A stretch of 64,000 bases of DNA from assembly GCA_964016885.1 (NCBI GenBank), contig OZ024745.1:112654001-112718000 (forward strand), read 5' to 3'. Positions within the stretch are counted from its first letter, which is position 1, and each line of letters opens with the position of its first letter. Under the pieces are notes generated by a model that made no database searches, was not told the DNA's origin, and was given only the letters and a program-made list of their open reading frames with translations. Below are positions 2,736-49,739 of the stretch, one piece after another. The translations under genes and the position numbers were made by a program. The stretch is from Eledone cirrhosa (Eukaryota).

Positions 2736-3808
2736 TAGCCCTAACATTTCCTGTTGTAGTGTATAAATCAATGCATGTCATGTCCTGTTTTCTTTTTCTT
2801 CTTTCTTACACTTTTTTTGTTGAATTGTTTCTATTGTAAATCTTAAACATTCTGTAAAAATGTACACCATTTTTACTGGTTGTTCATCGTATGTATATGC
2901 TACATATAACTAGGTTCTTGAAGTTGTAAACTATATGCTGTTATTACTAGATGATCATTGAATGAAAGACAATTATTTTTTTTAAATTGAATTTAACATC
3001 TTAGGAGGCAATGGTGTGACAAGAATAATGAAGTAGGTTGCTTCTGATAAATTATAATTTTTACTAGGAATAGAATTCAATAATACTTAAATTTTGCAAA
3101 TATCTTTTCCTATTACTTTTCTTTGTATAAATACCAAATTATAGCAGAAAAGTTTAGTACAGAGGAAGAGTTCTTTATTCATATCCCATCAAAAATGTTC
3201 TGGGTAAGATACTAAATATTTCTTTGGACCTCTCTTATTTTTAAACTGATTCTTGATTGCAAAAGACCATTGCTAGTTTCCTTGAATTCAAGCGATTATA
3301 TTTGATTACCAACTAAATACTTCCTGTGTTTCTTAATAGATTGCAGGTAAGATGAAAGCAAATACTTTTCTTTGACAAGTTGTTTACAATGCTAAAATCA
3401 TGTTTCTTACACTTAAACAAAATATTGTCAATATAGAAGGCACTGTGTATTGTTATTGCTGTTGACTGTCCCTGGTTGTTCAGATCTATGAGGAAAACTA
3501 TTCCAGCCATGATAATTTCATCGTTTTTCAGATATATTCTATCCAGGAATACATTATGCAATGTATCTTTCCTTTTATTTTAAAATGGTATGGTCTGACT
3601 GCTATTTCTAGTAGGTTGAGTGAATAGGTTTAAGTTCCTTTGTTGGCAAAATAATTAGATATAGATACTGAACTTTTATGTTAAACAGAAAATTCCTTTT
3701 GTTTGCTTTTTAAGGAAAAAGAAAGGAAATATTGTAATTTTTTGCTTGGATTCATTCGACCTTTGTAACTTGTATAAAAGCTATCATTTTTTAAAACTAT
3801 CTTTTCAG

Positions 3809-4283
3809 GATATTATGTTGGGGTGACCTGTTTGGTGGAAGACCGTCTTCTCTTTGATTTGGATGATTTAAGTTCAGGATGGGCAACATATTTGATTCTG
3901 GCCATTGGCTTTCCAATTGCTACTCTTACACTCTTCTACTACTGGTCATTAAATAACTGGGAGCAGCACCCAATAGCTAAGCAGTTACAACTGTTAACTG
4001 AAAATGGTTCATCGTGGCGTGATATTGCTTCCTCCATCAATGTGGAATTTCGAAGACCAGATAAATTTACTTCAGGTTCTGCGGCACGTCGAGCTATTGT
4101 AACTGATTCTTGGGTTATTAAAACTTCTACTTACCATGTATATGTTGCTCACCAAAATGATATTCAGCTTAGCCTTGCCAGCAGTGAAGAACATCAGATG
4201 TCTTACGAATCAATGTCAACTGTCCAGTATCTTAATATCAACATTATTCCCAACAATGCAGCTCTTAAGTCTTTTACTATTCG
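3809..4283 (+). CDS. TMEM129: E3 ubiquitin ligase TMEM129, internal exon (first exon not found in window)
   Basis: Acceptor cttttcag|GA, donor CG|gtaag; GYYVG...WEQHPIAKQL...WRDIASSINVEFRRPDKF...IVTDSWVIK is typical TMEM129. Confidence 0.93.
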
Positions 4284-4362
4284 GTAAGACTCACTAATGA
4301 TTTTTTTTTTAATTCAAATTTACTGATTTTCTTTTTTCTACAAGTTATTAGTAATCATCACA

Positions 4363-20239: not shown

Positions 20240-23200
20240 TACCAACACTTTCCCTTCCACCCACGTGCAATTGTGCCTAGCGCCTAGGCTGGTGAAAACC
20301 AGCCACTCACCCCTGATGCCGCTTGGTGCCCCAGTCCCCTGCTCCACGCCCCATCCTCCATCCCCACCAGTCGACATCTGCAGCACTTGCAGCACCACGA
20401 ACAGACGGAAGAGGGGCCGTAACTATCGGCGTGCGGCTGCTTCCACCACCTCACCTGTGTTGGCTTGACGCGTCGAGCTTCCAGTGTCTTCGCAGCGTGG
20501 AGATGCAGAAACTGTCTCTTCCCCCTCGTCTGCCCAACCACGGCCGTCTGGCACTCCACCAGATGAGACAGCGAGCTTGCCTGATGCTCAAGCCTCGCTG
20601 GTCAACATCGCTCAGCTTAGGAGGCTCCGGAAGATTTCGCTCAGGATCCCGAGAGCAACCCGGGTGCCGGTAGCCGATGCCTTCGCTTCCTCGAACGAGA
20701 GTGCTCTGGATTCCAATCGAGCCAGCGACTGGAAGCGCCTCTCCTATTTCGCCCCACTCGCCCTCGGCCTCCCCAGCTCTGGCGCTGACCGAGACGGCCG
20801 GTCGACAGCAGCCTTTGTCAAGGCTAGTGCCCATTCCAAGCGTTCCGAAGGATGCCACAACCCCTGCTCTTGGGTGCCTCCAATCATCCACCTCTGAGGC
20901 CAGCGCCAAGCGTTTGCGTGACCGCGTAAACGTTAAACTTATCATGGGTGGTATCAAGGCTGCAGTCAGAGTGGTTGTCTCAGAGGACACTGTCCTCCAA
21001 CCCACCGAGGTTGTCCTGGCTGCCCTGCGACTCAAGCACTTTGAGCTACACGCTGAGCTCCGACCCATACCCACACCTGATCCCCCACCTGCTCCTTGTG
21101 GCTTCCGACGCAGACATCATGTCCGCTATCAAGTCCTTCCCAGCTAGCAGCAGCGGAGGTGCTGGTGGTCTCCGACCAGGCCACCTCAAGGAGTTGCTAT
21201 ACCCCCTCTCCGCTGAGGCCGGGCGCCACTTTCTGAGTGCTATTGTGGCACTTACCAATAGGCTTATCCATGGCGCCCTGGATGATCACGCCCGAGGCCT
21301 TTTTTTTTTCGGCTAACCTGACGCTCTCAGGAAGAAAGAGGATGGCATACGCCCCATCGCTGTGGGCAATGTCTTCCGGGGGCTGGCTGCTAAGGGGGTC
21401 TGAAGGTCCATAACACCTGAACTGGGTGAGGAGTTCAGTCCGATGCAACTGGGTGTCGGCGTGTCCGGTGACTGTGAGAGGGCCGCACATACAACCAGGC
21501 AGTTCTTCAATAGCTGCCCACGGAACCGGCATCCAGGGACTCCAGGCACCTCATTGTCAACCTTGACATGGGGGATGCCTTTAACTGCTGCATACGCCAG
21601 GACATCTGCTCAATGCCTGCCTCAGCCGAGCCCCCTCCGCCTACCCGCTGGCCTACTTGTCATATGGAGCCCCGAGCATGCTCCTTGCTGCTGGCACGGT
21701 CATACCTTCGGCCACTGGGGTCCAATAGGGCGACCCTCTGGGCCCCCTCCTGTTTGCCCTTGGTATAGACCACATTACCCGGAGTATCACGGCCCCTCTA
21801 AACGTTTGGTACCTGGACGATCCTACGCTGGGCGGGCCCGTGGAGAGTGTCTGCCACGACCTTCAATCGTTGGTTCCTGCCCTGGCGGGAATCGGCCTCT
21901 AGGTCAACTCGTCCAAGTCGGAGGTGGTGAATGTCAGCTATGATGCTCAAGGCTTTGCAGCCTCCGTCTTGGACGTGTGGTCCAATCTCCATCAGGTACA
22001 GGTGACCCCCCAAAGAGGATGTCCTCATCCTCGGGTCACCGATCCTCTCGCCGGCCATCCACTCCACCATCAGGTCTAGGCTCCGACAACTCCAGACCCT
22101 CACGAGCCGACTGGGCTTGATCGACGACCACCCAGCTCTCTTCCTGTTGAGGAACTGCTTCGCCATGCCGAAGCTCCTCTACATACTTCGTAGCGCTCCG
22201 TGCTACAGCCACGCATCTCACCTCGCTGATCTCGATACTTGTATCCGAGCGGCAGCTGAGGAGATATGCAACGTCCGGTTTGACGACATTGGATGGCAAC
22301 AGGCCACTTTACCTGTCAGATTTGGCGGCCTTGGCCCGGTCCCCGATCTCGCAAGCTTTGCCGGCGTTTCTTTCATCGGTAACCTCATGTCACGTCCTCG
22401 TCAGCAGGGTTCTCCAAAATACAATGGAACCCTCTGTGTTCAGGGAACGTGAGGTCACCTGTAAGACGTGGAACAGGCTGGGACTTAGCCCAGTAGACGT
22501 CCCTCCTCATTCTCCCCCTGCTGACGTCGAGTCTCCCCAAAGCGTATGGGATGCCATCCAGTGCAGCCAGGCCTCAGACAGGCTCACGCGCCAGCTCGAC
22601 CAGCACCGCCTTGCCTGTTTTCGCGCGGCCTCCAAACCCCACAGTGGTGTCTGGCTCCATTCCTTGCCATCCTTCCCCACTGGCACGCAGCTGGATAACG
22701 ATATCCTGCGCATCGGCGTTTCCTTGAGGCTTGGACTCCGGATCTGCGAGCCACATAAATGTCGCTGTGGATCCACCGTGAACTCTTTCGGACTCCAGCC
22801 GCTTTCCTGTCACCACAGGGCCAGCCGCCTTCCACGCCATGTTGCCCTCAACGAGATCATTAAGCATGGCTTGGACACTGCAGGCTTCACCTCCCAGCTC
22901 GAGGCGGTGGGGTTGGATCGAGAGGATGGCAAAAGGCCAGACGGTATGACTATCTTCCCGTGCCGCGGTGGTAAACGCCTCGTCTGGGATGCCACTTACA
23001 GCGACACTTTCTCCAGCCGCAACCTGGTGCAGTCTGCGACTAACCCAGGTACTGCTGCACGTCAGGCTGAGGAGGCCAAACTCTTCAAGTACCGGTCGCT
23101 CTTCGACAGGCTCGCCGTCGTGCCCTTGGCAGTGGAGAATTCTGGTGTCCTTGGCTCTAGGGCTACCTCCATATTCACCTCCATAGGCGCCGAGCTGGCC

Positions 23201-23403
23201 AGCCGCAGGTGTGAGCCTCGCGAGTTGGAATGGCTCTTCCAGCGTATCTCCCTTAGCATCCTCCGGGGAAACGCCTTTTCATTCCTGTCCGCCGGGGCTG
23301 TGCGGAGGCCACCACGTGGGACCCCATTTGCTCACCATACGGATTAATAGGCAAAGTTATAAACTATTGTAAATAAATAATCACATATACTAAAAAAAAA
23401 AAA
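20240..23403 (+). mobile_element. CRE-like non-LTR retrotransposon (PHD + RT + restriction-like endonuclease), frameshifted
   Basis: GC-rich block; KKEDGIRPIAVG, QLGVG, LDMGDAFN, GDPLGPLLF, WYLDD; CRCG...RHVALNEII; KRPDGMTIFP..GKRLVWDAT..DT; WLFQRISLSILRGNA; poly(A) at 23392-23403. Confidence 0.9.
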
Positions 23404-26100: not shown

Positions 26101-28584
26101 TTAGAAGTTATGTGCAATTAACTCAGCACCCCATATATTAGATGCATATTCTTTGACAGCTCGATCACTTGAGAATTTTCCACAAGAAGCTATGTTCAAT
26201 AGAGATCTTCTTAACCATTCTTTAGTATTTTGATAAAGAATTTCCACTTCATCTTGGGCTCTTATGTAATCTTCGTAATCTTCAAGAAGCATATACTGAT
26301 CGTAATGATACAAGCTATCATAGATGTCCATAAACAGAGAGTGATTGTCAGGACTGAAGTACCCTTCTTTAATCATGTCCATTGCTCTTCGTAATTCTTC
26401 ATTACGATGATAATGACGGGATGGTGTATATCCATCATCTTTCAAAGTCTTAACCCCTTCAATGCACAAACCAAAAAGAAACATATTATCTTTTCCAACT
26501 TCATTCGCAATTTCGATATTGGCACCATCCATTGTACCAATTGTCAACGCTCCATTGGCCATGAATTTCATGTTTGATGTGCCACAAGCTTCTGTTCCGG
26601 CTGTCGAAATTTGTTCACTAAGATCTGCAGCAGGTATAATTTTCTCAGCCATAGATATGTTATAATCTTCTAAATAAACTACTTTAAGTTTGTTTCCTAT
26701 ATCAGTATCATTATTGACAATCTTCGCAATATTATTGATAAATTTTATAATAAGTTTACCCATTTTGTAACTAGGAGAGACTTTACCACCAATGATGACG
26801 GTACGAGCAACAACATACTTCTTATCGAATTTGATACGACAATATTTAGTAATTATATGAAGACAATTCAATAACTGGCGTTTGTGTTCGTGAATACGTT
26901 TTACATGGACATCAAATAAAGATGCTATGTTTATATTGATAAGATATTTTTCTTTAATATAATCAGCCATTTTCTTTTTATTTTCCATTCTAACTTCCAT
27001 TAAATCTCTTAAAATATGGCCATCAGACTCGTATTTTCTAATATCATTTAAATTTTGAAACTCTGTGACCCATGACTCTCCAATTCTTCCTGAAATCAAA
27101 TCCGAAAGACATGGATTACACTGAAGTAACCATCGCCTTGGTGATATTCCATTAGTCACATTTTTAAATTTATGTGGCGTCATTTCATAGAAGTCTTTAA
27201 ACATTTCATGTTTTAGTATTTCTGTATGTATTATAGCTACGCCATTAATTACATGTGAACCAACGATACACAAATAAGCCATGTTTATTTTTTTGTAAGG
27301 CTCCTCTTCGAATATGGACAGATTCCTTCTTCGTTCACCATCATTTGGCCATATTCTATCAGCTTTTTCTAAATGTAAATGATTGAGATGGTAAATAATC
27401 TGCATATGCCTAGGAAGCAATGACTCCACTACCGTAGCAGGCCAACGCTCAAGAGTTTCTGGGTCGAACGTGTGGTTTGTGTAAGAAAAGACATTACAGC
27501 TAATTTCCCATGCATCATCCCAATCCATGCATTCATCATCGACAAGTATTCTCATTAGTTCTGGTATTGCCAATCCAGGATGACTATCATTCAACTGTAT
27601 CGCTACTTTGTTTGGTAATTGAAAAAAGGCTTCTTTTCCCATATCTTGTCTTTCGCCTTTATCCTCTTTAAATCTTCTTATAATATCATGTAAAGTTGCT
27701 GCTACTAGAAAATATTCTTGTTTGAGGCGCAATTCTTGTCCTTCGAAGAAAGCCTCATTAGGAAAAAGGACAGATGAAAGATTTTCAGCCACGTTTCTTT
27801 CTAAAAGTGCTCTCATGTAATCTCCGTTATTAGAAAATCGTGCATGAAATTCTGTTGAGGAATTAGCTGACCAAAGTCTAAGAGTATTTACTATGTTGTT
27901 CTTGTAACCCGGAATTGGATAATCATAAGGAGTTGCAATTATGTTTTGCGTATCAAGCCAAGTAAAGCGACCATCTATAACTTCCACTCTTCCCCAAAAA
28001 CGAACGGGAACACTGTGTTCGGATCGACATTTTTCCCATGGGCACCCATATTCCAACCATTCATTTGGTGATTCACATTGCCATCCATTTTCGATTTTTT
28101 GTGTAAATATTCCATAATCATAGCGTATTCCGTATCCATATCCTGATACACCAATTGTAGCCATGGAATCTAAGTTAGAAGCTGCTAATAGACCAATGCT
28201 GCCGTTTCCTAATCCTGCTTCTGTTTCCATTTGAATAAGATTACTTAACTTTAAGTTCATCTGTCTTAAAGCTTCTTCGTTAGAATACATATTCCCAAGA
28301 CATAACATGGCATTTTCTAGAAACTTACCCATATAAAATTCCATAGAAAGATAATATACCCTTTTGGGATCATTATCAGTATTATATTGCCGAGTTTTGA
28401 TCCAACGTCCAGCAAGTTGGTCTTTAATAGAGTGGGCTAAGGCGACATAGTAATCTCTTCTGCTAGCTACATCTCTATTTTTCATACATGTAAAGTGAAG
28501 ATGTCGATTGAAAGATTTTTTAATGTTTTCTATATTCATCTCCTCTTGACCCCCCGACGTTTTGTATATATTATTCGAAGACAT
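26101..28584 (-). CDS. Glycogen phosphorylase-family protein (GT35), intronless, 827 aa, divergent
   Basis: Uninterrupted ORF; FNRHLHFT, ELRLKQEYF, IIRRFK, IQLNDSHP, YTNHT, VKRIHEHKRQLLN, EACGTSNMKFMANGALTIGTMDGAN, GKFSSDRAV. Confidence 0.96.
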   Translation of the reverse strand: MSSNNIYKTSGGQEEMNIENIKKSFNRHLHFTCMKNRDVASRRDYYVALAHSIKDQLAGRWIKTRQYNTDNDPKRVYYLSMEFYMGKFLENAMLCLGNMYSNEEALRQMNLKLSNLIQMETEAGLGNGSIGLLAASNLDSMATIGVSGYGYGIRYDYGIFTQKIENGWQCESPNEWLEYGCPWEKCRSEHSVPVRFWGRVEVIDGRFTWLDTQNIIATPYDYPIPGYKNNIVNTLRLWSANSSTEFHARFSNNGDYMRALLERNVAENLSSVLFPNEAFFEGQELRLKQEYFLVAATLHDIIRRFKEDKGERQDMGKEAFFQLPNKVAIQLNDSHPGLAIPELMRILVDDECMDWDDAWEISCNVFSYTNHTFDPETLERWPATVVESLLPRHMQIIYHLNHLHLEKADRIWPNDGERRRNLSIFEEEPYKKINMAYLCIVGSHVINGVAIIHTEILKHEMFKDFYEMTPHKFKNVTNGISPRRWLLQCNPCLSDLISGRIGESWVTEFQNLNDIRKYESDGHILRDLMEVRMENKKKMADYIKEKYLININIASLFDVHVKRIHEHKRQLLNCLHIITKYCRIKFDKKYVVARTVIIGGKVSPSYKMGKLIIKFINNIAKIVNNDTDIGNKLKVVYLEDYNISMAEKIIPAADLSEQISTAGTEACGTSNMKFMANGALTIGTMDGANIEIANEVGKDNMFLFGLCIEGVKTLKDDGYTPSRHYHRNEELRRAMDMIKEGYFSPDNHSLFMDIYDSLYHYDQYMLLEDYEDYIRAQDEVEILYQNTKEWLRRSLLNIASCGKFSSDRAVKEYASNIWGAELIAHNF

Positions 28585-28721: not shown

Positions 28722-28765
28722 TTACGTCACTGCACAGATTCACTTGACCTATCTTATGACATCAT
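28722..28765 (-). promoter_or_regulatory. Two CRE/ATF-like sites upstream of the minus-strand phosphorylase
   Basis: TTACGTCA at 28722-28729 and ATGACATCAT at 28756-28765, about 140-180 bp upstream of the ATG. Confidence 0.4.
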
Positions 28766-36999: not shown

Positions 37000-37262
37000 A
37001 GTGAGAGGAGAGAGAGAGATGTGTGTGCGTGTGTGTATTCACAAAAAATCTAGTAAACACATTTGCTGGCAGTTAGTTGGTTCAGCCATATATATATATA
37101 TTTCTTCCTTCTTCCTTCGTCATTTCTTATCAAATGCATATAGCATCAACCCTTCATGAGTAACGATTACTAATTTAGGCAGAAAGCCATGAATTTGGGA
37201 AGAGGGAAAATCGATTGTATCGACCCCAGAAGAATGAAAAACAAAGATTCGGCAAAATTTGA

Positions 37263-37461
37263 NNNNNNNNNNNNNNNNNNNNNNNNNNNNNNNNNNNNNN
37301 NNNNNNNNNNNNNNNNNNNNNNNNNNNNNNNNNNNNNNNNNNNNNNNNNNNNNNNNNNNNNNNNNNNNNNNNNNNNNNNNNNNNNNNNNNNNNNNNNNNN
37401 NNNNNNNNNNNNNNNNNNNNNNNNNNNNNNNNNNNNNNNNNNNNNNNNNNNNNNNNNNNNN
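37263..37461. other. Assembly gap
   Basis: Run of N; 37152-37262 is repeated identically at 37462-37572. Confidence 0.99.
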
Positions 37462-38184
37462 NCTTCATGAGTAACGATTACTAATTTAGGCAGAAAGCCA
37501 TGAATTTGGGAAGAGGGAAAATCGATTGTATCGACCCCAGAAGAATGAAAAACAAAGATTCGGCAAAATTTGAACTCAGAACGTAAAGAGCTAGAAGAAT
37601 ACGGCAAGGCATTTTGTCCAATGCTTTACTGATTCTTCCAGTCAACTATGCTTTAGTTTATGTAATGCATGCAAGCTCCCGTAACTCCCGAGGGAGTCGT
37701 AGAGATGGGGGATCCGTATTGACATACGGCATTTTAGGGTATTTCTAAAACCTGGTGAAGCCCATCTCCTCTCCAAGTCTGAATACAGCAGATTTCTTCC
37801 AAAGAAGGATAGAAAGTAGAAGTGAAAAAGAGATATAGAGAAATAATCGACCCCAGTACTTGACTGCTGTTTTTTTTTATCGACCTTGAATGAATGAAAG
37901 GCAAAGTTGACTTCGGCTTTATTTGAACTCAGAGCGCAGAGACCCTTAACGAATCCGACGTTCTAACGACTCTGCCAATTATTTAATACGATTTAATACA
38001 TTATTTAATACGATTTAATATGATTGTAACACTGACATTAAAAATGTTGAAATATATTTTATTAACAAGAAGATATTATCAACATTAAAAATGTCTTAGG
38101 GACATGGGTGCTTCTTAGACAAACTCAATTGATTCTTCATAGTCGATTCTGAACGTTGAGAAACATTAAAAGATGAGCCTAAAG

Positions 38185-38409: not shown

Positions 38410-38423
38410 TTATGACGTCATAA
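38410..38423. promoter_or_regulatory. Perfect CRE (TGACGTCA) within a 14-bp palindrome
   Basis: TTATGACGTCATAA about 240 bp upstream of the ATG at 38658. Confidence 0.5.
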
Positions 38424-38657: not shown

Positions 38658-41165
38658 ATGGATGAGGGTGCTCTTTCAAAAAAACGTATCACGATTCGTG
38701 GCCCTATAGAGAATGATACTATTGAGAATATAAACAAAGCTTTCAACCGTCACCTTCATTTTACTTTAATGAGAGATCAGAGTTCGGCAACCTTAAGAGA
38801 TTATTATTATGCATTGGCGTTTACAGTAAAAGACCAGTTGGTTGAGCGCTGGCTTCGAACACAACAACATTACCACAATGCTGATCCAAAAAGAGTTTAT
38901 TTTTTGTCAACTGAATATTACATGGGGAAATTTTTGCAAAATGCATTGATTTCTTTGAACAGCTTTGCTAATCATGAGGAAGCAATGTCCCGGTTAAATC
39001 TAGATATAGACGAACTGATGGAACAAGAACCCGAAGTGGGTTTAGGAAACGGTTGTCTTGGCATGCTAGCCTCTTGCATTTTAGATTCCATGGCTACAGT
39101 CGGTATCGCTGGCTATGGCTATGGAATTCGGTATAATTATGGTACATTTAAACAGGTCATAGACAATGGATGGCAGTGTGAATCAGCTGACGAGTGGCTT
39201 CAGTTCGAAAATCCATGGGAACGACCAAGACCGGAGCACAAAGTAAATGTACGTTTTGGAGGTCACGTTGAATTGGTTGATGAACGATTTGAGTGGGTTA
39301 ATACCTACTCAATAATTGCAATGCCATATGACTACCCAGTTCCCGGTTTTGCAAATAATAAGGTAAATACACTTAGGCTTTGGTCAGCTAAAGCATCGTC
39401 TAATTCCAAAGTGCAATTTGGCAATGACGGTGATTATATAAGATCCGTTTTAGAAAGAAATGCGACTGAGAATATCACCTGTGTCCTTTTCCCAAATGAT
39501 GCATTTTTTGAAGAGCAAGAATTGCGACTCAAGCAAGAGTATTTCTTTGTAGCAGCAACCTTAAATGATATCGTAAGAAGATTCAAAGCTGACAGTTATG
39601 GACGTTCTAAAAAAGGAAAAGAAGTGTTTTTTCAATTCCCAAAGAAAGTTGCGATTCAGTTGAATGAAAGCCACCCTGCATTGGCAATACCAGAGTTAAT
39701 GAGAATTCTTGTAGATGAAGAATTTCTTGAGTGGGATGATGCATGGTGCATTTCCTGTCAGACTTTTGCTTTTACAAATCACACAATATTAATAGAAGAG
39801 TTTGAACGGTGGCCTGTCACCATATTTGAAACATTACTTCCGAGACATTTGCAGATTATTTATCATTTGAATCATTTACATTTAGAAAAAGTTGCTAAAG
39901 ATATTCCGGACGATCATGATTGCATTCGGAGAACGTCAATATTCGAGGAATATCCTTACAAGAAAATAAACATGGCATACCTGGCTATTGTTGGTTCACA
40001 TGCAGTTAATGGTGTGGCATCTCTTCACTCAGAAATAATGGTACATGAAATTTTCAAAGATTTTTATGATCTGCAACCAGAAAAGTTTCAAAACAAAACA
40101 AATGGAATATCTCCAAGACGATGGATGCTCCAATGTAATTCTGCACTAGCAGATGCACTTGTAGAAAGAATTAGTAACCAATGGATAACTAATTTGTCGA
40201 AAATAAGAGAAATTGAAGCATTTATAAATGATCCTGGGTTTATAAGAACTATAATGTCAATAAAACTAGAGAATAAAAAGAGACTAGCCAAATATATTAA
40301 AGATAACTTTGACAAAACTATAGATGAGGATTCATTGTTTGATGTTCAGGTCAAAAGGATTCATGAAAATAAGCGCCAGTTATTGAACTGTTTGCATATA
40401 ATAACTAAATACTGTCGTATTAAATTCGAAAACGAATCAGTGGTGCCTCGGACATTTATATTTGGAGGTAAAGCAGTACCTGGGTATAGAATGGCCAAAC
40501 TAATAATAAAGTTAATTAACAATATTGCTAATGTCATCAACGAGGATTCTGATATAGATGGTAAACTTAAAGTATTCTACTTGGAAAATTATGGTATGTC
40601 TTTAGCTGAGATAGTTATTCCAGCAACTGATCTTAGTGAACAAATTCCAACAGCTGGTACAGAAGCTTCGGGAACAACCAACTTAAAATTCATGGCTAAC
40701 GGAGCTTTAACAATAGGCACACTGACTGGAACTAATGTTGAAATAGCAGAAGAAGTAGGACAAGAGAATATGTTTCTTTTTGGAAATAATTTTGACGAAG
40801 TACGTCAAATAAAAGAATCGGGATATAATCCATCGGAATATTACCATTCTATAGATGAATTAAGAAGAGCGATGGATTTAATCAGAGACGGACATTTTAG
40901 TCCTGAAGATCACGGCTTGTTCACAGATTTATTTAATAGTTTGTTCTACGCCGACGAATATTTACTATTAGCTGACTTCCAGTCATATTTGGAAGCGCAG
41001 GATCGAGTTGAAAAACTTTTCCTTACGCCTGAAGAATGGACCAAAAAATCAATCTTAAATATTTCTTCGTGTGGAAAGTTTTCTAGTGACAGAATGATAC
41101 GAGAATATGCCAAAGACATTTGGAATGCAGATGTGTCAGACAAACTTATTCGGCCGGTCTCCTAG
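38658..41165 (+). CDS. Glycogen phosphorylase-family protein (GT35), intronless, 835 aa, divergent
   Basis: Uninterrupted ORF; KRITIRG, FNRHLHFTL, ELRLKQEYF, FTNHT, KTNGISPRRW, VQVKRIHENKRQLLN, EASGTTNLKFMANGALTIGT, GKFSSDRMIREYAKDIW. Confidence 0.96.
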   Translation: MDEGALSKKRITIRGPIENDTIENINKAFNRHLHFTLMRDQSSATLRDYYYALAFTVKDQLVERWLRTQQHYHNADPKRVYFLSTEYYMGKFLQNALISLNSFANHEEAMSRLNLDIDELMEQEPEVGLGNGCLGMLASCILDSMATVGIAGYGYGIRYNYGTFKQVIDNGWQCESADEWLQFENPWERPRPEHKVNVRFGGHVELVDERFEWVNTYSIIAMPYDYPVPGFANNKVNTLRLWSAKASSNSKVQFGNDGDYIRSVLERNATENITCVLFPNDAFFEEQELRLKQEYFFVAATLNDIVRRFKADSYGRSKKGKEVFFQFPKKVAIQLNESHPALAIPELMRILVDEEFLEWDDAWCISCQTFAFTNHTILIEEFERWPVTIFETLLPRHLQIIYHLNHLHLEKVAKDIPDDHDCIRRTSIFEEYPYKKINMAYLAIVGSHAVNGVASLHSEIMVHEIFKDFYDLQPEKFQNKTNGISPRRWMLQCNSALADALVERISNQWITNLSKIREIEAFINDPGFIRTIMSIKLENKKRLAKYIKDNFDKTIDEDSLFDVQVKRIHENKRQLLNCLHIITKYCRIKFENESVVPRTFIFGGKAVPGYRMAKLIIKLINNIANVINEDSDIDGKLKVFYLENYGMSLAEIVIPATDLSEQIPTAGTEASGTTNLKFMANGALTIGTLTGTNVEIAEEVGQENMFLFGNNFDEVRQIKESGYNPSEYYHSIDELRRAMDLIRDGHFSPEDHGLFTDLFNSLFYADEYLLLADFQSYLEAQDRVEKLFLTPEEWTKKSILNISSCGKFSSDRMIREYAKDIWNADVSDKLIRPVS

Positions 41166-42642: not shown

Positions 42643-43876
42643 TTCTTTATTAACCACAAGGGTTTACTTAAAGTAGACATTAAGGACAGTGCAGGACAAT
42701 GCAGGACGGTACAAATGGGCATTTCTGCGTGTAAAAAACAAAAACAGAGGATGTAACAAAAAATAACAATGAAAAATTCCCCAATAGGGGGGAGACTTCG
42801 GAGGGACATTTGTGGAGAAAGCCCAGTAAAAACCCACAATGACCCTGACCACCAAGGCAAGTGCCCTCTCAGTTTTCCACCTTTAATTTACAGATATATA
42901 CTCAGAGTAGGCCCATTCACTCGGGCCATTCTTGCTTCTCTCACCCATCTTTCAACAAAATGCTGGGAAGAGAGCACTTCCCTCTCTACTCTGATTTTCC
43001 TTTTCAAATGAAATTTGAAAAAGTCAATCAGGGCATCACCGAAGAGGTAAGTGCTCGTCTTCAGCCCTTTCAAACGTGTCCACCATACTATCTCTTTCGC
43101 CATGGCCACCAGACAGATAAAAACTGCCTGCCCTTCCCGGCTAAAGGAGGAGAGCGGGGCAATCCTCACGATGGACTCAGATGATAGTCGGATCCGTCCT
43201 AAACGCGACAGCAGGTGTTCGACATAAACCCACAAGTCAGCAATTTTCGGACACTGGACGAGTGCGTGCAGGACGGTTTCGTCGCCCTGCGCGCATCTCG
43301 GACATGCCCGGCTGACGGCACCTCCATGCCTGTAGAGTTTATCCCGAACTGGCAAGGCTCCTCGGTAGCACTGCCAGGCCAGAGATTTCTGGAAGTTGTC
43401 CATAGGCCCTGGCCCGAAAGTTCTTCCGAAGAGATTGGCTAGTTGATTTTCGTCGACGCCTAGAGTTTCCCCAAGTACGTCGTCGCTCTTACCCTCCACT
43501 AATCCTCTATAGAACGCCGAGGTGGAGTTTCCACCGATCACATTGCCCGATTGGTCGAGGGCTGTGAGCGCCTGAAGACATTCCAGTCTCCAGGCGCTCC
43601 CTCTCGGTCTTCGCTTGACCCAGGACTGCAGCTCCGTCAAGGAAACGAGCTGGGGAAATACGTGTCTAGCAAACGGCGACCACACCTGATCACCGTCGAG
43701 GAAGAGGTGGAGATGTCGTAGCCTGAGCGCGTGCCTGCGCATCATCAGCCACGGCATGCCCAGCCCTCCACGTAGCGGGTGTTGACAACAGATGGACCGC
43801 CTGACCATCGGAGCACGTCCCTTCCACAAAAAGCGAAAGAGCAAACGCTCCAGCGCAGTCAGGCGAGGCTTAGGAC
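42643..43876 (-). mobile_element. L1/Tx1-clade LINE, 5'-truncated 3' end of ORF2 plus 3' UTR
   Basis: FRFLWKG...PLRGGLGMP; zf-RVT LPVRDKL...CPRC...ETVLHALVQC; reading frame open to the stop at 42888; flanking direct repeat CAACGACAATAATAATAAT. Confidence 0.9.
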
Positions 43877-44959
43877 AACGACAATAATAATAATAATGAT
43901 GTATTTTGTTGTAGCAGGAAAGGTATGGTTTCATTATATAAATAAATGTAACGGTTTTGTTATATGGCAATGTTAGTTGAATTGAGGTTCGGCTGTAAAT
44001 CCCAGGTTCTGTTGCTGCAGTGATGATAACTCTGGAAAGGATCTTTCCATATCACATTTAAAGGTTATATGGCCGTGGTAATAGCATCACAAGACTTTAC
44101 AAACCGATTATAAAGGTTGAGCTGGCATGCCAAACAAAGGAATAAACAAATTAAGAGTTTAGAAGGTACGGTCCACTGGCTGAGGTGCTGGCCAGGCCGT
44201 AGTTATGCTGTTGTTGCATATTGGCTGGTGGTCATATACGACGATACAATGTAAGTGATTCAACAGGAAGACGGAAGAATAGATAAAACATAGAAGTAAA
44301 CAGTATAATCGAACCTGTGTGTGTGTGTGTGTATTCTTAGTATATGTTATTCATCTCAAGGACTGCGGTTTCGAATCTTCGCCGGTAAATTTATGGGAGA
44401 ATTTCGTTATAGTATCATCATTTTTACTAATTTTATATCGCAGTCGGCGAACAATTGCATCGTCGGTTACAAATTTTCCATGGATCAATCGGTGGGCCAC
44501 TGAATTTCTGGCTGCGAGAGAACAAATATCGCTAGAAATCTCGTTCGAAAATATATAATCTTTTTTTGCTAATGTTTATATCCGTTGCAGATATACATCG
44601 GCGAAAAATATGTACATATATACATGATGACAGCCACCAAGTAATCGGGTATGGCTATCAAATGACATCCGCTTGATTCTTGTGGGTGTTGTGAACGGAA
44701 ATGGCTTTTTAGGCCTAAATTTTGAGCGTTCCTTTTCATCAAGTCACCTTTTAAGGCTACAGTCAGCCATTCACACCATTCAAAGATCCTATGATATCGA
44801 ATGATGCCTGTGCGTGAAGCTTTTTATAGTAAGGAAAGTCCTTGCACTGAACCTATCCCACTTACTGAACAACAATAGCTATAATCCGAAAAGAAGAATA
44901 AATCAACATATCGGCTACTACTGAGCCGCAGGTTTTACATCTGATTTTCACCCTCCTAG

Positions 44960-48777: not shown

Positions 48778-49282
48778 AGCTACAGCCACGCATCTCTCCT
48801 CGCTGATCTCGATACTTGAATCCGAGCGGCAGCTGAGGAGATATGCAATGTCAGGTTTGACGACATTGGATGGCAGCAGGCCACTTTATCTGTCAGATAT
48901 GGCGGCCTTGGCCTCCGGTCCCCGATCTCGCTGACTTTTCTGGCGTTTCTTTCATCGGTAACCTCATGTCACGTCCTCGTCAGCAGGGTTCTCCAAAATA
49001 TAATGGAACCCTCTGTGTTCACGGAACGTGAGGCCGCCTGTGAGACGTGGGACAGGCTGGGACTTAGCCCAGTATACGTCCCTCGTCCTTCTCCCCCTGC
49101 TGACGTCAAGTCCCCCCCCCCCGAAGCGTATGGGATGCCATCCAGTGCAGCCAGGCCTCAGACAGGCTCACGCGCCAACTCGACCAGCACCGCCTTGCCT
49201 GCTTTCGCGCGGCCTCCAAACCCCACGGTGGTGCCTGGCTCCATACCTTGCCCTCCTTCCCCACTGGCACGCAGCTGGATAA
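48778..49282 (+). mobile_element. Internal fragment of the CRE-like element
   Basis: High identity to 22202-22698. Confidence 0.9.
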
Positions 49283-49739
49283 GTGTGACGACGCACTGGG
49301 CGTCGAGGAAATCGAACTGACCAGTCTGTTCCGGAAGACTTCCGAGCCGGAGACTATGGATAACCTCCAGAAATCCTTCGCCTGGCAGTGCTACAGGGGG
49401 CGGGGCACTGCCGGTTGGAGATAAGCTCAACAGGCACGCAGAGCCTTCTGTTCTCAGCTAAAAAATGCTGGGGGCCGCAAACCTCCGTTGCTGCAAACAC
49501 CAGTGCCGGGACACAAAACCTCACTATCAACAACGCCAGCACCGACAGCAGTTACCCTAGAAGCAGCATCACCGGCACCAACAACAGCACCAGCTAAACC
49601 ACCACCAACAGAATCAACCCAAGGGGGAAAACGAGGAAAGTTCTTTCACATAAGATAGAAGGAAATGCCCTCTTCCCAATAGAGCAAAAATGCTACCTCG
49701 CAGCTCATACGGATGTAAAGGTGAACTGCCGCTCAAAAC

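Follow-up and report, generated by a model that had tools for sequence, protein, structure and literature searches.

A 64,000-nucleotide stretch of Eledone cirrhosa DNA (contig OZ024745.1, positions 112,654,001 to 112,718,000 of the forward strand; here called the window) carries two intronless genes for proteins of the glycogen phosphorylase family GT35, one on each strand, and both proteins have lost active-site residues that are invariant in ordinary animal phosphorylases. Judging from sequence, we consider it somewhat better than an even bet that the two copies are folded, cofactor-holding pseudo-phosphorylases in which catalysis has been released from selection. Both are predicted to hold pyridoxal phosphate and would likely carry out little normal phosphorolysis. 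Their retention probably reflects a non-catalytic role, and the likeliest is that of a structural or glycogen-binding protein in some specialised tissue.

Active-site residues of the plus and minus copies

Both open reading frames (ORFs) are intact and single-exon and lie head to head, ~10 kb apart across an assembly gap (Table 1; the start methionine of the plus copy was picked by alignment to its 835-residue orthologues). The two proteins are 60% identical to each other. Each matches nearly the whole of the Pfam profile PF00343 (plus, 987.9 bits; minus, 985.6 bits; cut-off, 27; positions 1 or 2 to 712 of 713), and human and rabbit phosphorylases match both copies over their full length at ~1050 to 1067 bits with 54 to 57% identity. 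An AlphaFold model of the plus copy, for which 45 aligned family members were supplied, predicted the two-domain GT-B phosphorylase fold, with a mean local confidence (pLDDT) of 88, a predicted template-modelling score (pTM) of 0.88 and a template-modelling score (TM) of 0.94 to solved phosphorylases; the model speaks for fold compatibility rather than stability, and for the plus copy only. This prediction agrees with the first-pass annotation of the window, which had expected fold and cofactor site to be kept, and the Schiff-base lysine K680 and the basic cluster K568/R569/K574 are indeed present in both copies.

Residues were numbered by frog muscle phosphorylase (P0189, position minus 1), a scheme that agrees with the rabbit numbering at 20 of 20 landmark residues. 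A residue-by-residue alignment reproduced every substitution and every retained residue that had been listed for the pair. The plus copy carries G135C, R138M, Y280F, N284A, D339E, T340S, Y573N, S667P, D693T, and A695T; the minus copy carries G135S, L136I, R138L, Y280F, D283E, N284A, T340S, and Y573H. Four of these (Y280F, D283E, D339E, and T340S) are conservative. The alignment added A129V, A383E/T, A610V/S, V650M/I, G677T/S, S674C, and erosion of the adenosine monophosphate (AMP) site; D693T and G677T/S each require two base changes. An active phosphorylase has the glycine loop G134-G135-L136-G137-R138 and Tyr573, and both copies depart from this pattern (G135C/S, R138M/L, Y573N/H). H377, N484, K568, R569, K574, E672, G675, and K680 are retained in both, so that the glucose hydrogen-bonding set given in PMC6479789 (His377, Asn484, Glu672, and Gly675) is complete in each. 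Neither copy has the Ser14 phosphorylation site and intact AMP site of a regulated animal phosphorylase. Position 14 is Thr in the plus copy, as it is clade-wide, and cannot be aligned in the minus copy. At the AMP site, we observed R43Q, N44S, and Y75H in the plus copy and D42N, N44D, Q71R, and Y75T in the minus copy (2 and 4 changes, respectively, on a count over 12 AMP-site residues), with R242, R309, and R310 retained.

How unusual are these residues? In 169 animal homologues of 820 to 900 residues from outside the clade described below, 15 of them named mollusc proteins, G135, L136, R138, Y280, D339, T340, A383, Y573, A610, V650, S667, S674, G677, D693, and A695 are invariant (169/169) and D283 is present in 168. 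The idea that ordinary mollusc or animal phosphorylases share the substitutions found no support, since none of the 169 carries any of them except D283E, found once. Among 149 distant family representatives, 128 to 148 of which cover each site, G135, R138, Y280, D339, T340, Y573, and D693 are retained in 85 to 92%, Asn occupies position 284 in only 21% of 142, and 26% have Ser at 677. N284 is also A, S, or T in all 13 clade proteins, canonical-looking ones included; N284A, listed in the first-pass annotation for both copies, is therefore no marker of the two window genes.

The supposition that a canonical enzyme exists elsewhere in the genome was borne out. A third, intron-rich phosphorylase gene lies on contig C12 (46975161-47008755), with at least 16 exon-like matches over 34 kb that are canonical at the glycine loop, the 280s loop, and positions 338-342, 375-384, 568-575, 664-681, and 690-696. 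Because this gene remains, housekeeping glycogen breakdown is covered. Protein and DNA searches of the genome found only the gene pair and the C12 gene (the protein search used a stricter first pass). Single ORFs on C5 set against an intron-bearing gene on C12 are what retrogenes leave behind; the assignment is based on intron content. The exon matches of the C12 gene have Thr at position 14 and Gly at 686, and Thr14 may be general in cephalopods.

Parallel change within a cephalopod clade

The window pair belongs to a clade of intronless phosphorylase copies that is confined to cephalopods. It comprises 13 proteins: the pair itself, "brain form-like" models from Octopus bimaculoides, Octopus sinensis, and Octopus vulgaris, one protein from Argonauta hians, and five more. 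By similarity, the window comes from an octopod that is none of these three Octopus species. (P0003, P0009, P0127, and P0129 come from Logan contigs of 2.9 to 3.6 kb that resemble DNA contigs and were not counted as transcripts.) A quick-method tree placed the clade on a long stem, separate from the C12 gene and other animal enzymes. Within the clade, the main tree, built from non-core columns by a careful method without a mixture model, gave full support to a three-member group (P0009, P0128, and P0129), a plus group, and a minus group. Forcing the window pair into one clade was rejected on the same columns (approximately unbiased [AU] test, P = 7e-44). The tree and the missing introns suggest that the retrocopy arose in the cephalopod line and then duplicated in octopods. 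The three-member group is probably from squid or cuttlefish; the full length of P0128 as a called gene, on a contig of 189 kb, suggests that it too is without introns. A profile search and a 50% representative search returned no clade members beyond the four known clusters, and no Argonauta orthologue of the plus gene was among their results. As a separate observation, H405, H408, E412, C588, C808, K93, and N116, rare in other animals, are fixed in 12 of 12 full-length clade proteins and give a His-rich face on the storage-site helix (residues 404-412).

The cleft is altered in this genome, in a second organism (organism B, below), in A. hians, and in two octopod sequences (P0003 and P0127), and it is canonical in the three Octopus species and in the three-member group. 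The Octopus pair (XP_052834372/373, XP_036356236/237, and CAI9717426/427) are one-to-one orthologues of the two copies at 75% and 77 to 78% identity, and their neighbouring accession numbers suggest the same adjacent gene pair. Unlike the window pair, they keep G135, R138, Y280, D339, T340, Y573, S667, G677, and D693. Their label, "glycogen phosphorylase, brain form-like," comes from automatic naming only, and we found no study of them. At 329 invariant positions, the Octopus orthologues and the three-member group differ at 30 to 36 and the partial model P0126 differs at 26, compared with 45 in P0003, 51 in P0127, 61 in the minus copy, 64 in the plus copy, and 102 in the Argonauta copy. Because the Octopus orthologues are canonical, the repeated erosion belongs to particular lineages and does not characterise the gene pair in itself.

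The Argonauta protein (GAB1598723.1; P0130) is an open frame of 821 residues with H377Q, N484C, V455N, H341R, and R138I. It falls in the minus clade, shares Y573H, T340S, S674C, N647D, and an aliphatic residue 138 with the minus copy, and keeps K568, R569, K574, E672, and K680 like both window proteins. It is nevertheless far more eroded, having lost H377, N484, V455, and H341 among many other core residues, and is still named glycogen phosphorylase. No other copy would serve better as a test case for a dead phosphorylase. Outside the clade, P0214 and P0217 are distant full-length phosphorylase homologues with degenerate catalytic motifs; pseudo-phosphorylases may also occur outside animals.

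For counting, 275 core sites were defined as those invariant in the animal set and unchanged in the six full-length intact clade members, which therefore score zero by construction. The numbers of changed core sites were 30 in the plus copy, 33 in the minus copy, 11 in P0003, 21 in P0127, and 68 in the Argonauta copy. Core sites changed about three times less often than variable sites (0.11 to 0.12 versus 0.31 to 0.33). Thirteen changed core sites (44, 75, 135, 138, 257, 280, 340, 383, 573, 610, 650, 677, and 710) are shared by the plus and minus copies where 3.6 are expected (P = 3e-6), so the sharing goes beyond chance, and only 3 of them have the same residue. When only the 136 positions also conserved in distant members were counted, 14 had changed in each copy and 7 were shared (P = 6e-5). 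Seven of the ten pairwise overlaps among the five eroded copies gave P values below 0.05, and the other three all involve P0003. Gene conversion was considered as the source of the shared sites and rejected (residues differ at 10 of the 13; proportion of synonymous differences [pS] between paralogues, 0.70; AU test). On the pseudo-phosphorylase reading, the lineages would change at common sites because it was these sites that were released from constraint.

Run X4, from organism B, carries both genes and dates some of these changes. Its plus contig differs from the window at 168 letters over a 2801-base stretch, and its listed gaps are only 3' of the stop codon, with none inside the plus ORF. 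The comparison covers the first 333 plus-gene codons, read from the listed differences on the assumption that the list is complete up to 39024. Organism B has 8 of the 14 plus core changes in this range, C135 and F280 included, and is missing six, M138 included; therefore, C135 and F280 are older than the split and M138 is younger. The loose ends of its minus contig (30-letter consensus strings read by eye) give G135, I136, R138, C142, H274, and Y280. In the plus gene, positions 135 and 280 thus changed before the split, and in the minus gene they changed after it; R138 changed later than the split in both. On these sequences, the losses are stepwise and separate in each gene. Two runs of restriction-site-associated DNA sequencing (RAD-seq), X5 and X6, reached 9 and 10 of 30 bins and added no usable sequence. 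No RNA run was among those listed as carrying the genes, which argues neither for nor against expression.

The same comparison revealed selection on the plus protein. Over the 333 codons, the nonsynonymous rate (dN) was 0.059 and the synonymous rate (dS) was 0.156, a ratio of 0.37 (P = 8e-5), with 38 residues differing (17 derived here, 12 in organism B, and 9 unclear). Replacements affected 7 of 118 core codons where 36.5 would be expected under neutrality. At a neutral divergence of 0.156, about 16 stop gains are expected per gene; neither window ORF has one, and there is none among the differences read for organism B. The proteins thus appear to be still under selection, because dN/dS is 0.37 and the frames are open. 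The broken frame and dN/dS near 1 of a pseudogene were not found, the ratio being that of the first 333 codons of the plus gene only. What we found instead is the sequence pattern of a pseudoenzyme, in which catalytic-site residues are lost while fold and purifying selection are kept, although the loss is partial in the window pair.

One potential explanation that asks for no new job is slow decay: copies that became dispensable in these lineages would be drifting towards pseudogenes, with residual selection removing only truncating or misfolding alleles for as long as the genes are expressed. We regard this as rather improbable. It would account for branches of 0.23 to 0.26 against terminal branches of ~0.02 in Octopus (non-core columns), for a dN/dS that is high for the phosphorylase family, for three residues replaced in a ten-codon span of the minus glycine loop along the short branch that follows the organism B split, and for altered allosteric and tower positions. 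Decay is hard to square with the deficit of core replacements or with frames that stay open in both window genes, in the organism B plus gene as read, and in the Argonauta copy after 0.6 to 0.8 changes per site over 821 residues. No broken member was seen in the clade of 13 proteins, although a broken gene would not appear in a protein database.

Catalysis, predicted cofactor holding, and possible glycogen binding

If catalysis was released, the cleft should bear the change. Our list of 42 cleft sites among the core sites follows the known rabbit and Escherichia coli structures, was not computed from their coordinates, and was fixed before counting. Cleft sites had changed more often than other core sites in the plus copy (9/42 versus 19/221, P = 0.019), the minus copy (12/42 versus 17/221, P = 4e-4), the Argonauta copy (19/42 versus 45/221, P = 1e-3), and P0127 (7/42 versus 14/221, P = 0.033); on the same list, the enrichment in P0003 was not significant (3/42 versus 7/221, P = 0.2). 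Fifteen of the 42 were unchanged in all five eroded copies, including K568, R569, K574, E672, G675, and K680. The freed sites would be the 130s loop, 280, 339-340, 383, 573, 610, 650, 674-677, the AMP site, and the tower, and those still held would serve folding, cofactor anchoring (the six residues just named), and the glycogen-storage surface. Sites of catalysis and allostery, once freed, would drift to whatever residue the structure tolerates.

The first-pass annotation had left the choice between altered-specificity enzymes and pseudoenzymes. The cleft is selectively eroded, and purifying selection continues. The suggestion of a different substrate is weakened, since the replacements differ at 10 of the 13 shared sites and the Argonauta copy is without glucose-binding residues as well. 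Its proposal of a glycogen-binding scaffold or structural recruit fits best. A regulatory heterodimer, another of its options, may be considered as well; a modelled complex would say little about it, since any pair of phosphorylases would resemble the solved dimers. The residues taken as the storage site (Y404, N407, L411, R426, S429, E433, and K437; a list not derived from structure coordinates) are all retained in the plus copy, and each of the five eroded copies agrees with the intact orthologue at 7 of 7 of them (P ~0.04 versus matched sites). This is a weak test, and the unchanged residues give a weak pointer to glycogen binding.

Reduced phosphorolysis in both copies, as the first-pass annotation proposed, is a good inference from the residues. 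Given what is known of the family, placing a side chain at 135 and a hydrophobic one at 138, together with losing Tyr573, would disturb the placement of phosphate and cofactor phosphate and lower turnover. A Tyr-to-Phe change at the equivalent of 573 in E. coli MalP reportedly lowers activity without abolishing it. In human muscle phosphorylase (PYGM), R139W and A130V, which correspond to R138 and A129 here, occur together in a McArdle patient described in PMC8343624, where activity was presumed from an exercise test and not assayed. By analogy, this pair of alleles points to loss of function at positions changed in the plus copy. A129V is the identical change; R138 became Met here and Trp in the patient. 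The human alleles are rare loss-of-function variants in the sole muscle gene, whereas the window changes are fixed in a spare copy. Two further sources state that in a bacterial phosphorylase the cofactor and the dimer stabilise each other (PMC2837607) and that the cofactor sits on a lysine of the C-domain while glucan is bound mainly by the N-domain (PMC11046441). The Argonauta copy, with the sugar site gone and the cofactor lysines kept, may be the end of the path; because it keeps K568, R569, K574, E672, and K680 with H377 and N484 lost, retention of these residues does not require phosphorolysis. We tentatively suggest that octopods repeatedly converted this pair of retrogenes, born within cephalopods, into a structural protein that holds vitamin B6 and binds glycogen while its sugar site is dead, the stages being canonical in Octopus, partial in this genome, and nearly complete in Argonauta; this wider scenario is possible rather than likely.

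Several results weigh against released catalysis. All four glucose hydrogen-bonding residues and the phosphate-binding basic residues are kept in the window pair, so some activity may remain, and about half of the shared changes are conservative. The changes are enriched in the cleft and not confined to it, as the altered sites among the 221 other core sites attest. The whole protein evolves fast: 38 of 333 codons are replaced relative to organism B, and two Octopus species differ at 7 of 333, a tempo that general relaxation would explain as well. At four changes (T340S, Y573H, A610S, and R69K), parsimony on the main tree does not separate parallel change from an ancestral change that Octopus later reversed. 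The cleft and storage lists were not derived from coordinates, and the comparison involves only five eroded copies and six intact full-length ones. The recurrence of identical changes (T340S in 5 of 5 eroded copies and Y573H in 3 of 5) could equally reflect selection for a new activity.

This last point leads to the possibility that the copies are still enzymes with a remodelled cleft, either low-turnover deregulated phosphorylases or enzymes that use another acceptor or hydrolysis through the cofactor, Arg569, Lys574, and Glu672. We judge this unlikely, though a more serious contender than slow decay. Retention of the eight cleft residues in both window proteins is compatible with it, and constancy of the six cofactor and phosphate residues in five eroded copies would have a probability of ~0.002 if they behaved like other cleft sites. 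Besides T340S and Y573H, the changes Y280F, D339E, and L384F recur in 2 of 5; R138 became M, L, or I, always aliphatic; and such recurrence, with the two-base changes D693T and G677T/S, could be directional selection. The Argonauta copy, in which the same lysines outlive the sugar site, and the differing replacements at shared sites argue for the pseudo-phosphorylase reading.

Could the substitutions be assembly errors, or be edited back to canonical residues in RNA? Cephalopods recode heavily by adenosine-to-inosine (A-to-I) editing, and minus S135 and plus T695 are editable to the canonical residue. An A-to-G change would, however, restore only 5 of the 30 core changes in the plus copy and 7 of the 33 in the minus copy (G135 of the latter included) and cannot restore R138, Y573, Y280, T340, or D693, so that recoding as a rescue, a check proposed at the outset, falls short. 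In run X1, one contig spans 38500-41300 and shows 0 differences from the window; X1 may be the source of this assembly and verifies letters only. Because X1 matches without difference and organism B shares C135 and F280, assembly error is ruled out. This reading is already largely refuted, and we give it very little weight.

Compared with animal glycogen phosphorylases (human PYGB, PYGL, and PYGM; rabbit GPb; PDB entries 5iko, 1fa9, and 1axr), the window pair has the same predicted fold, cofactor lysine, and C-domain basic cluster. It differs in having no introns, in position 14 (Thr, or absent in the minus copy), and in the change of G135, R138, Y280, T340, A383, Y573, A610, V650, and G677 in both copies. 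These are GT35 retrocopies that depart from the active-site definition of the phosphorylase enzyme and most likely work as pseudoenzymes. Cephalopod S- and Omega-crystallins and the sperm leucyl aminopeptidases of Drosophila are likewise duplicates of metabolic enzymes that lost catalytic residues and remain folded and selected. Those belong to other enzyme families with established tissue and role, and the likeness to the phosphorylase pair is by analogy only. A literature search found no description of the clade or of an animal pseudo-phosphorylase (subscription journals lie largely outside its coverage). In squid photophores, a gene labelled "pygb," which may or may not be one of these copies, is highly expressed according to PMC10225486.

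Few enzymes are as conserved or as well studied as glycogen phosphorylase, and in databases these copies carry the label of the ordinary "brain form," so cephalopod "pygb" gene counts may include inactive proteins. Five separate erosions form a natural series in which invariant residues that serve only catalysis or allostery can be told from those that folding, cofactor anchoring, or glycogen binding requires, and the series makes non-catalytic roles of phosphorylase directly testable. The pair would be a further candidate for the cephalopod habit of recruiting enzymes to new jobs; if it is merely decaying, it is a well-documented case of parallel relaxation.

Gene layout and neighbouring sequence

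Table 1. Positions of the phosphorylase genes, their altered and retained sites, and the assembly gap in the window
Feature	Position	Strand	Remark
Plus copy, intronless glycogen phosphorylase-like ORF, 835 residues	38658..41165	+	Orthologue of Octopus XP_036356237 / XP_052834373
Minus copy, intronless glycogen phosphorylase-like ORF, 827 residues	26101..28584	-	Orthologue of Octopus XP_036356236 / XP_052834372
Assembly gap between the genes	37263..37462	.	Flanked by 111-nt exact duplicate; gene spacing and head-to-head layout cross the gap
Plus glycine-loop region: A129V, G135C (39054-39056), R138M (39063-39065)	39036..39065	+	C135 common to organism B, M138 not
Plus 280s loop: Y280F, N284A	39489..39503	+	N284 change clade-wide
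Plus D339E, T340S	39666..39671	+	
Plus glycogen-storage-site region, ~residues 396-437	39837..39962	+	Coordinates approximate, site list not derived from structures
Plus K568, R569, K574 retained; Y573N (40368-40370)	40353..40373	+	
Plus cofactor region: S667P, G677T, D693T, A695T; E672 and K680 (40686-40688) retained	40647..40733	+	Organism B keeps S667
Minus glycine loop: G135S, L136I, R138L, C142S	28177..28200	-	Organism B minus copy keeps G135, R138, C142
Minus C-domain cleft: Y573H (26884-26886), V650I, S674C, G677S; K568, R569, K574, E672, K680 retained	26566..26901	-	

The duplicated 111 nucleotides on both sides of the 200-N gap (37152-37573) are typical of overlapping contig ends, and the two genes probably lie ~311 bases closer together than in the assembly. 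A perfect palindrome of the cyclic AMP response element (CRE) type lies at 38413-38420, ~240 bases upstream of the plus gene, and two near-matches lie 140 to 180 bases upstream of the minus gene (~28725-28765, minus strand). The window has 2 such palindromes where 0.53 are expected, and 11 of 100 shuffles reach 2; they are a weak hint at cAMP-type control. Comparison of the plus and minus upstream regions for a shared promoter gave no convincing alignment.

Elsewhere in the window, 20451-23347 (+) and 48820-49424 (+) look like non-long-terminal-repeat (non-LTR) elements by eye and resemble each other, without a Pfam match. An exon of a TMEM129-like gene (Pfam PF10272, 149.5 bits) lies at 3778-4287 (+), and 42888-44051 (-) is a non-LTR retrotransposon remnant with a zf-RVT match.

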